This document shows, in pieces, positions 9,222 to 10,745 of a DNA stretch of 20,849 nt. The notes beneath the pieces are model-generated. The model saw nothing but the letters and a program-made list of their open reading frames with translations. It was not told where the DNA came from and ran no database searches. Source of the stretch: Candidatus Micrarchaeota archaeon (GTDB taxonomy: Archaea > Micrarchaeota > Micrarchaeia > Anstonellales > Bilamarchaeaceae); NCBI GenBank assembly GCA_040754495.1, contig JBFMCO010000019.1, positions 1 to 20,849 on the forward strand, read 5' to 3'. A program made the position numbers and the translations under genes. The first letter of the stretch is position 1. Each line of letters opens with the position of its first letter.

Positions 9222-9635
9222 ATGACCGGTCCGGCACAGAGGAATCCCGCAGAAGACCAGAGGATGCAGCAGGCCCCGCGGCGCGCGGACCAGTACCGGC
9301 AGCTATTCGAGAACCTGCGCAGCGGCTCGCCTCAGGAGCGGCTCGGCGCCATCAAGGCATTATCCACGTACATAGACCGGAATACCCGCCCCCTTCCATT
9401 CGATGACCGGTTTTTCCCGGTGCTCCGCCAGCAGCGCACCCTCGGCAGCGAAATCGACGTACGCTTCTTCCCGGTCCTGCTTTACCAGAGGATAAACCAG
9501 ATACGCGGGGTGTTCGCCGGGCTCAGCCATACCGACCCGGACCCGCAGGTGAGGAAGGCTGCGGAAAGCGCCCTGCGCCAGCTCGATGCCCTCTTGAACC
9601 GCCCCCAGAACACGTCTCCGGGCTCCCAGAGATAG
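9222..9635 (+). CDS. HEAT-repeat-like small protein
   Basis: LRSGSPQERLGAIKAL and DPDPQVRKAAESAL helical-hairpin motifs; internal 18-aa-period repeat containing RFFPVL. Confidence 0.65.
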   Translation: MTGPAQRNPAEDQRMQQAPRRADQYRQLFENLRSGSPQERLGAIKALSTYIDRNTRPLPFDDRFFPVLRQQRTLGSEIDVRFFPVLLYQRINQIRGVFAGLSHTDPDPQVRKAAESALRQLDALLNRPQNTSPGSQR

Positions 9636-9639
9636 CATC

Positions 9640-9647
9640 TTTATAAA
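9640..9647 (+). promoter_or_regulatory. TATA box of the rpl3 operon (TTTATAAA)
   Basis: Canonical box about 155 nt upstream of the rpl3 start, implying a long 5' UTR. Confidence 0.65.
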
Positions 9648-9680
9648 CATTTCTCCTTATACTCCTAAAAGTCCAATTAT

Positions 9681-9800
9681 TTCCGGCGCGGCAGGCAGTG
9701 CCTGCACCCCTCTACGGGAGGGGTCCCGAAAGCAGTAGGGAACCGATTTCAATCGCTTCCTGAAATCCAGACGGGCAACGCAGAAAAGCAGGTGTAGAAC
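9681..9800 (+). ncRNA. Putative structured 5' leader (r-leader candidate) of the rpl3 operon
   Basis: Hairpins GCAGGC/GCCTGC, ACCCCTC/GAGGGGT and GATTTCA/TGAAATC; motif GCAGTAGGGAACCGA resembles the 23S rRNA helix 28 region. Confidence 0.55.
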
Positions 9801-10745
9801 TTGACAGATATCAAGCGCCCCCGACGGGGGTCTATGGCCCACAGGCCACGGAAGAGAGCGGTAAGCCAGAACGCCAGGGTCCACTGGCAGGAGTCGGCGG
9901 AAAAGCGCGTCCTCGGATTCGCAGGCTACAAGGCGGGCATGACGCACGTCTCATACGTGGATGACAGCGAGTCTCCCACCAAGGGCCAGGAGGTCGTGAG
10001 CGCGGCCACGGTCATCGAGGTTCCGCCCATGGTCGTCTACGGCGTGCGCTGCTACAAGGTCAACAACTCCGTGGGGGACATCCTGACGACGGACGAGAAG
10101 ATACTCAAGCTCGCAGGCTTCAAGAAGAAAGTCGTGGCGAAGGCCGTGAACGAGGCCGAGGCCGACGATTTCCGGCTGCTCGCGTTCGCGATGCCCTCGA
10201 AGACAGGGTTCGGCAAGAAGCACGTCGAGAAGATGGAAATGGGCTGCGGCGGGAAGGACGCCAAGGAGAAGCTCGAATACTGCAAGAGCCTGCTTGGCAA
10301 GGAACTCCGCATCGGGGACGTGTTCAAGAGCGGCGAGCACGTCGACGTCGTTTCCGTATCCACCGGAAAGGGCTGGCAGGGCGCGGTCAAGAGGTTCGGC
10401 GTCTCGGTGCAGCGGAGGAAGGCCACAGGGAAGCGCAGGCACGTCGGAACGCTCGGCCAGTGGCACCCGGCCTACGTGCTCTACACGGTTCCGCAGGCGG
10501 GCCAGACCGGCTACCACCAGAGGACCGAGCTCAACAAGATGATACTGAAGATTGGCCAGAAGCCCGAGGACGTAAATCCCTCGAGCGGATTCCCCAGCTA
10601 CGGGTTCGTGAGGGGCGAATTCGTGCTCCTCAAGGGCTCCATACCGGGCCCTGCCAAGAGGCTGATAAAGCTGAGGCTTGCGGTCCGCGCGGCAGCTGGC
10701 GGCAAGGAGCCGCAGGTGGGCTACATATCGCTGGCTCCCCGGTAG
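9801..10745 (+). CDS. rpl3: 50S ribosomal protein uL3
   Basis: RPRRGSM..RPRKRA, GYKAGMTH, GKGWQGAVKRFG, GQTGYHQRTE; TTG start with AGGTG SD. Confidence 0.97.
   Translation: MTDIKRPRRGSMAHRPRKRAVSQNARVHWQESAEKRVLGFAGYKAGMTHVSYVDDSESPTKGQEVVSAATVIEVPPMVVYGVRCYKVNNSVGDILTTDEKILKLAGFKKKVVAKAVNEAEADDFRLLAFAMPSKTGFGKKHVEKMEMGCGGKDAKEKLEYCKSLLGKELRIGDVFKSGEHVDVVSVSTGKGWQGAVKRFGVSVQRRKATGKRRHVGTLGQWHPAYVLYTVPQAGQTGYHQRTELNKMILKIGQKPEDVNPSSGFPSYGFVRGEFVLLKGSIPGPAKRLIKLRLAVRAAAGGKEPQVGYISLAPR

Follow-up and report, generated by a model that had tools for sequence, protein, structure and literature searches.

A conserved structured leader upstream of rpl3 in Micrarchaeota, a probable new ribosomal-protein leader

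The DNA directly upstream of rpl3 in Candidatus Micrarchaeota archaeon encodes an RNA fold that is conserved and real, with strong comparative support. It occupies positions 9683-9786 of the window (the whole 20,849 nt stretch analysed, forward strand of contig JBFMCO010000019.1, assembly GCA_040754495.1), between a TATA box and the Shine-Dalgarno sequence (SD) of rpl3, and consists of a four-way junction of the helices P1 to P4 with a distal arm, P5. Ribosomal-protein leaders (r-leaders) are structured 5' untranslated regions (UTRs) bound by a ribosomal protein that is encoded in the same operon (PMC7247131 and established knowledge). The element described here is probably a new member of this class that acts on translation in the autoregulation of its operon, with protein binding and repression as presumed steps. 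Functionally it belongs with the bacterial and archaeal r-leaders and its principle is familiar; structurally it stands outside the catalogued families. No r-leader linked with Micrarchaeota or DPANN was found in Rfam 15 or in a literature search, which agrees with the initial annotation, where the lineage was thought to have none described.

Promoter, operon and architecture of the fold

The gap 9636-9800 separates the stop codon of a plus strand ORF (TAG, 9633-9635) from rpl3; all features described below are on the plus strand. The TATA box TTTATAAA of the operon promoter, read directly at 9640-9647 where the initial annotation had placed one, is kept in the same-genus loci with conserved spacing: there it has the form TTTATAAA(C/T)ATTTCT and lies 33-37 nt 5' of a conserved AATTATTT block. 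The centre of an archaeal TATA box is usually found some 26-27 nt 5' of the transcription start site, so that transcription is predicted to start at 9668-9672, and it is here that sequence conservation among the relatives begins. Judged by this promoter spacing, the mRNA of the rpl3 operon would begin with an untranslated leader at ~9670-9800.

The gene itself (uL3; Pfam Ribosomal_L3, E = 2e-65) extends over 9801-10745 and starts with TTG, which is the earliest possible start because of an in-frame TAG at 9795-9797 and agrees with the encoded N-terminus, MTDIKRPRRGS... The SD, AGGUG at 9789-9793, is complementary to the 3' end of the same-genus 16S rRNA, ...GAUCACCUCCA; both the SD (GGUG 9790-9793) and the weak TTG start had been correctly located by the initial annotation. 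TTG is the rpl3 start codon in 18/23 related loci; for a highly expressed operon to open so consistently with a weak start codon is unusual. According to Pfam searches with the downstream ORFs the operon reads uL3-uL4-uL23-uL2-uS19-uL22-uS3-(uL29)-SUI1, with uL3 first and a 61-aa ORF in the uL29 position; it thus holds eight ribosomal proteins and SUI1, and lacks rpsJ. Neither an oligo-U terminator between fold and SD nor a second promoter for rpl3 is visible in the window sequence. Two minus strand ORFs, 9360-9650 and 9657-9947, were rejected as spurious, the conserved upstream coding signal being on the plus strand and stopping at 9635. The plus strand ORF in question (9222-9635, 137 aa) has no Pfam match; a conserved DNA stretch, ACCCGGACCCGCAGGTG, is common to it and the ORF upstream of rpl3 in locus L005. 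The source assembly was built from a metagenome, is ~80% complete, is devoid of 23S rRNA and has a normal 5S gene on another contig.

The rpl3 upstream regions of 22 genomes of the genus display a common ordered layout. TTTATAAA(C/T)ATTTCT comes first and is followed ~33-37 nt on (TATA box to AAUUAUUU block) by UCCAAUUAUUUCCGGCG, two hairpins that are free in sequence and length, (G/A)UCCCGA, GUAGGG, a variable hairpin, CCUGAAA, CGGGCAACGCG and the SD. The 5'-terminal block UCCAAUUAUUUCCGG (9672-9686) is mostly unpaired and near-invariant in most of the genus; in more distant members (L015, L021, L052, L054) it is replaced. In the predicted fold it could lengthen P1 by pairing with the A-rich stretch 3' of that helix, but it is too invariant for a covariation test.

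The paired fold comprises bases 9687-9782, and the minimum-energy fold of the window sequence contains the same helices as the comparative structure. P1 pairs CGCG (9687-9690) with 9779-9782; three of its four pairs covary in alignment A7, with compensatory forms such as CGUG/CACG, CACG/CGUG and UGCG/CGCA, and the outermost pair is a C-A mismatch in the window species. P2, the hairpin GCAGGC AGU GCCUGC at 9691-9705, had been proposed from the single sequence and is real; its length in relatives ranges from 5 bp up to a long interrupted stem. The region 9706-9724 had been read as a hairpin ACCCCTC/GAGGGGT. Its inner part is upheld as P3 (CCCCUC UACGG GAGGGG, with CCCCUC/GAGGGG as stem, 9707-9723), but the outer A9706-U9724 pair is not, since both are conserved junction bases, U9724 being present in 36/37 distinct sequences. 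The cUACGg tetraloop suggested for this hairpin has to be abandoned as well: its register breaks after 2 bp and the P3 loop varies among relatives.

P4 joins CCCG (9725-9728) to CGGG (9772-9775). It is nearly invariant, with two C-G pairs in 37/37 sequences, and belongs to the core common to the minimal leaders of other genera described below. The P4 arm continues via an internal loop into P5. On its 5' side (9729-9737) this loop has 4-5 variable nucleotides and ends in the conserved G9735-U9736-A9737 (G 31/36, U 30/36, A 36/36); on its 3' side (9762-9771) it starts with the conserved G9762-A-A-A9765 (G 34/34, then A 33/35, 32/35 and 25/29), followed by 4-6 variable nucleotides. P5 (9738-9761) pairs 9738-9742 with 9757-9761 by a closing G-U (33/34 sequences), two G-C pairs and a variable stem and loop. 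The 3' strand of the core, 9772-9782, consists of the P4 strand CGGG, the junction bases CAA (9776-9778) and the P1 strand CGCA. Across the 37 sequences it holds the most conserved string of the element, GGGC(A/U)AYGC (C 37/37, A/U 32+4 of 37, A 37/37), which is also found in the minimal leaders.

Two of the short strings singled out in the initial annotation, GUAGGG (9735-9740) and the GGGC-bearing CGGGCAACGC (9772-9781), are accordingly conserved. The 7-bp hairpin GAUUUCA/UGAAAUC that it drew at 9745-9767 is restricted to the window sequence and excludes both the covarying P5 and the conserved GAAA; this competing helix may have arisen by chance, or the species may have a second conformer of its own.

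The conserved bases outside the helices are concentrated at two places, the U and C(A/U)A of the junction and the GUA/GAAA internal loop. At the consensus level the latter agrees with the bulged-G (loop E/sarcin-ricin) module, 5'-(A)GUA-3' opposite 5'-GAA-3' beside a helix; such modules are common protein-binding sites (PMC7247131 and established knowledge). The distance from the 3' end of P1 to the SD is 5-11 nt in 22/23 loci (7 nt in the window), and that to the start codon 16-18 nt in 20/23.

Comparative support and distribution

A covariance model (R1) was built from a seed of two sequences with a hand-drawn structure. This seed was chosen because RNAalifold on a plain MAFFT alignment recovered P5 only, as a result of varying arm lengths, and because MAFFT misaligned the seeds of 11 and of 4 sequences. 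R1 recovered 29 rpl3 leaders, in the alignment of which 96.5% of cells pair and 18/25 pairs are compensatory. The rebuilt model gave 47 matches, 37 of them distinct, which make up the enlarged alignment: here 94.8% of cells are in standard pairs and 19/25 pairs are compensatory (P2 6/6, P3 6/6, P5 3/5, P1 3/4, P4 1/4). The covariation score of the 37 distinct sequences is 0.492; with the partners slid by 1-3 columns it falls to 0.046-0.108, and none of 500 column shuffles attained 0.492. The alignments used for pair counting were fitted to the model and are therefore biased towards the structure; the signal is nonetheless taken as real on account of the slid-partner control and because the hairpins can be made out by eye in the raw sequences. 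Taken by itself, the window sequence has an unremarkable folding energy (z = -1.4 and -1.8), so that the case for a fold beyond chance is a comparative one. The structured rpl3-operon leader of the initial annotation is hereby borne out, being conserved in relatives and backed by covariation; as befits an r-leader, it lies on the coding strand in what is, by promoter spacing, the 5' UTR of a ribosomal protein operon.

Model R2 has matches in 35/39 genomes of the genus, each adjoining rpl3 and each the only one in its genome, except in G011, where a second copy lies beside a second, partial rpl3. The occurrence of the leader once in the genome disposes of a repeat or mobile element. Among the four genomes of the genus lacking an R2 match, one has a weak-scoring element (L021), one has an element cut by the contig end (L003) and another, G008, shows a divergent form of the four-way fold (L023). 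Elsewhere in the family, 59 genomes from 22 genera gave no R2 match. Several other Micrarchaeota groups, one of which (L025) belongs to another GTDB family, carry the core hairpin only, 5'-GCR-(U/A)-CCC..loop..GGG-C(A/U)A-YGC-3', close to the leader's 5' end, with an arm that is in places enlarged by 60-120 nt. A search of 303 kb of rpl3 loci with a model of this minimal core (R3) gave 14 matches at E<0.02, each on the coding strand and just 5' of rpl3. Since the core hairpin is common to these other Micrarchaeota, the junction core would be the old part of the element, and P2, P3 and the loop-E arm later additions within the genus.

Spacing and size vary in both forms. Three members of the genus (L004, L016, L043) have an extra 45-55 nt with a strong hairpin (e.g. 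CCGCCUUUUAGGAAAAGGCGG) between P1 and SD, and in other genera the minimal-core leaders lie anywhere from ~5 to 75 nt before the SD. In one member of the genus (L010:2431-2635, minus strand) an insertion of ~70 nt with G/U-rich near-repeats (GUUUUGGGUUUUGGGUCUUGAGUUCUGGGUC) is found within the internal loop between P4 and P5.

With its own strong TATA box, its compact multi-stem fold and its conserved junction bases the element could be taken for a small RNA gene in its own right, or for a riboswitch with a small molecule as ligand, placed before rpl3 by chance. This has hardly any probability, given the missing oligo-U terminator, the narrow gap of 5-11 nt between fold and SD in 22/23 loci and the lack of a visible second promoter from which rpl3 could be transcribed. 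Moreover, the minimal form in other genera, being just one bulged hairpin, is too simple to provide a ligand pocket, and the leader belongs to no Rfam family: Rfam 15 gave nothing at gathering thresholds, and at E<=10 only Acido-1, which is noise. Several specific RNAs were considered and rejected. The UCCCGA and AGUA...GAAA strings recall 5S rRNA, but the leader has no RF00001 match, the canonical 5S gene is found elsewhere with 77.4 bits, and the UCCCGA-like string of 5S rRNA sits in loop C rather than in a helix. A kink-turn (L7Ae site) does not fit, the CAA bulge being followed by CGC with no tandem GA/AG. Nor does a bulge-helix-bulge, which has two 3-nt bulges on opposite strands, 4 bp apart, with that of the 5' strand on the outer side: the leader has one 3-nt bulge only, which adjoins the 4-bp P4 at its outer end but belongs to the 3' strand and so is of the wrong handedness. 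ARAGORN finds no tRNA gene in 9500-9900.

Structured leaders before rpl3 seem to be common in Archaea and structurally diverse. Other Micrarchaeota families (e.g. Anstonellaceae; L024, L027, L030, L074-L077, L079, L096, L099, L102) have a different conserved rpl3 leader, made up of a hairpin, (GA)UGA-CAC, a second hairpin and A-AUC(AUC), with the 3-nt bulge on the 5' strand and not on the 3' strand. A Fermentimicrarchaeum-like group (L082, L083, L085, L087, L088, L090, L092) has a short leader, CCACUCUUUUCUACGACUGAAGUnUGGGGUUUCCCGGCCCCC, directly 5' of the SD. Outside the phylum, the marine-group Euryarchaeota/Thermoplasmatota loci L109-L115 show a near-invariant leader of ~200 nt before rpl3, and two Thermoplasmata loci (L105, L107) have GCCAAACGCAAAGGGGCAAUGCnnUGAGCAACCCCG in common at this place. 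Their role is presumably alike, but none of these sequences has an evident structure in common with the Micrarchaeota motif; in L105 and L107, GGGGCAAUGC pairs downstream and not upstream.

Ribosomal RNA likeness and candidate ligands

No single protein of the operon can be named as ligand; the candidates are the eight ribosomal proteins uL3, uL4, uL23, uL2, uS19, uL22, uS3 and uL29. Alignments, motif scans and model searches of same-genus 16S and 23S rRNA did not yield a convincing look-alike that would name one of them. The same-genus rRNAs themselves differ in length, 1588 vs 1492 nt for 16S (~100 nt; L130, G010) and 3148 vs 2935 nt for 23S (~200 nt; L032, G007), a spread that suggests insertions or expansion segments.

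According to the initial annotation the leader would sense uL4 by copying the region of 23S rRNA helices H27-H29, contacted by this protein, and would be a relative of the L4-Archaeoglobi RNA. Three points speak for it: the operon has rpl4 in second place, the S10 leader of E. coli has uL4 as its established ligand, and L4-Archaeoglobi likewise precedes rplC-rplD-rplW-rplB (PMC7247131). The sequence comparisons go against it. The supposed H28 copy, GCAGUAGGGAACCGA, corresponds in relatives mostly to variable stem and loop, with GUAGGG alone conserved; the cognate region of same-genus 23S rRNA reads GGCGAGGCGAAAGCCGAAGCGAAAGC, and in local alignment to the 23S or 16S rRNA of the genus the leader does no better than its shuffled versions. 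Kinship with L4-Archaeoglobi (RF03135) is not supported by the searches with its covariance model, which had no match at E<=10 in window positions 9550-9900, short of the gathering threshold of 34.5 bits, and matched 0/31 Micrarchaeota genomes at E<=1 with the Haloferax volcanii control above the cut-off. The primary uL4 site is the H18-H19-H20 junction of 23S rRNA (PMC6426284). Its conserved loops (UGGAAA, UGACAG) lack a counterpart in the variable P2 and P3 loops, and when the leader was compared with this uL4/uL24 junction no resemblance was found. Finally, L4-Archaeoglobi was rated borderline by its authors, who assigned uL4 by precedent only and claimed no rRNA mimicry (PMC7247131). Sensing of uL4 by such a copy is therefore decidedly unlikely, and uL4 stands as one of the eight candidate ligands, not as an inferred one.

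Further comparisons with rRNA were made with different parts of the element. A brute-force search of 23S and 16S for the helix-U-helix/helix-CWA-helix pattern returned dozens of chance matches, none of which combined conservation with true pairing. In four 23S sequences of the genus, scans for the motifs with no or one mismatch found GGCAACG only at variable places. The 23S segment GUAGGGG...CCUG (~830) is no P5-like hairpin, as its GUAG and CCCUCU belong to different helices in the Rfam consensus structure.

There is a partial likeness to the small subunit. In the Rfam consensus structure the same-genus 16S rRNA reads GU[CCUG UUAAGU CAGG]CA-ACGAGC, to be compared with U[CCCG...CGGG]CA-ACGC in the leader; the two have GU-CCYG...CRGG-CAACG in common, including the exact 7-mer GGCAACG at an equivalent place relative to the helix. 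The junction core could thus copy the h35/h36/h37 three-way junction of 16S rRNA and serve as a sensor of a small-subunit protein, with uS3 as candidate: rps3 is in the operon and uS3, rather than uS2 or uS5, is the protein that we take to contact h35-h37. The probability that the rRNAs contain a match of this kind by chance, estimated at ~0.01-0.03, is a post hoc figure for a likeness spotted by eye after several other comparisons. Moreover, the UUAAGU loop of h37 is not copied, the order of the arms round the junction differs, and in many minimal leaders the 7-mer is interrupted by CAAUGC. R3 searches of the rRNAs gave noise only and did not pick up the h35-h37 site. A 16S copy of this kind is quite improbable in our estimation, and the likeness serves as a post-hoc lead only.

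The bulged-G module points to no single protein either, because several rRNA sites fit it equally well. AGUA-stem-GAA hairpins of this type occur in same-genus rRNAs at ~363-390 of 23S, at ~1310-1338 of 16S and in loop E of 5S; the 23S hairpin, which by our own count is at the position of E. coli H21, has the closing G-U in 2/4 genomes. All resemble the leader in the 5'-GUA-3'/5'-GAA-3' flanking a helix and differ from it in that the first A of AGUA is unconserved in the leader, the match being one at the consensus level. Joined together, the two likenesses would make a two-input sensor, in which the U/CCCG/CGGG/CAA junction is a copy of 16S h35-h37 read by uS3 and the loop-E arm docks a second ribosomal protein. 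We regard this as highly speculative, with very little probability. If true, it would be the first r-leader of DPANN and the first with uS3 as ligand, and living lineages would allow one to follow how a bulged hairpin grew into a four-way junction.

Function and significance

The reading that we prefer is that of an autoregulatory leader, which was also proposed by the initial annotation and remains the best reading given the proximity to the SD and the conserved weak start. The invariant surface, comprising the U, CCCG/CGGG and CAA of the junction and the GUA/GAAA loop, would most likely be the docking site for a ribosomal protein encoded by the operon. When in excess over free rRNA this protein would bind the leader and lock its fold. 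At 5-11 nt from the SD, the bound fold may then hinder loading of the 30S subunit at an already weak TTG start, so that less uL3 would be translated and, by coupling, less of the products of the downstream genes. Transcription attenuation is unlikely because no U tract is found 3' of the fold. Simple steric occlusion cannot hold everywhere, in view of the 45-55 nt inserts in three members of the genus and the ~5-75 nt that separate minimal-core leaders from the SD.

This variable distance to the SD in some lineages, the location of the fold at the extreme 5' end of the predicted transcript and the failure to identify an rRNA mimic would also be in line with a constitutive 5'-end element that exerts no feedback, either as an mRNA stabiliser against 5' exonuclease, as a folding insulator or as a standby or enhancer site for the TTG start. 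We deem such an element unlikely: a mere stabiliser would need neither the ~15 invariant unpaired bases at junction and internal loop nor the restriction to one operon, once per genome.

An autoregulatory leader would have parallels in both prokaryotic domains. In E. coli, the S10 leader is located before rpsJ and controls transcription termination (with NusA) as well as translation. Like the Micrarchaeota leader it is a multi-hairpin RNA near the first gene start of an operon that carries rpl3 and rpl4, and the expected logic, by which an excess ribosomal protein represses its own operon, is alike. Its fold is unrelated, however, and in the Micrarchaeota the operon lacks rpsJ and the leader a terminator-like U tract. 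To our knowledge, few ribosomal leaders are known in Archaea. L4-Archaeoglobi (RF03135; Eckert & Weinberg 2020, PMC7247131) is, like the leader described here, an archaeal structured RNA directly upstream of the start of the rplC-rplD-rplW-rplB operon, and both are presumed to be autoregulatory, with presumed ligands. The two lack covariance-model similarity, belong to different phyla, ours being from Micrarchaeota (DPANN), and differ in support, the borderline rating of L4-Archaeoglobi contrasting with the strong covariation of the Micrarchaeota leader. The archaeal S15 r-leader has a multistem junction and the eL15 r-leader a bulged-G-like module, each a likely protein-binding surface (PMC7247131). 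The Micrarchaeota leader combines both kinds of features, while genes, lineages and structures differ; the S15 r-leader has a clear rRNA mimic, whereas none is established for the Micrarchaeota leader.

The element is a candidate for a new Rfam family, which would improve the annotation of Micrarchaeota genomes, and it offers a handle on the balance of ribosome synthesis in symbionts with reduced genomes. Its forms make up an evolutionary series: several genera, and a second family, have just the minimal bulged hairpin, which a single genus has elaborated into a four-way junction bearing a loop-E arm. This series is a good model for the growth of regulatory sites between RNA and protein.
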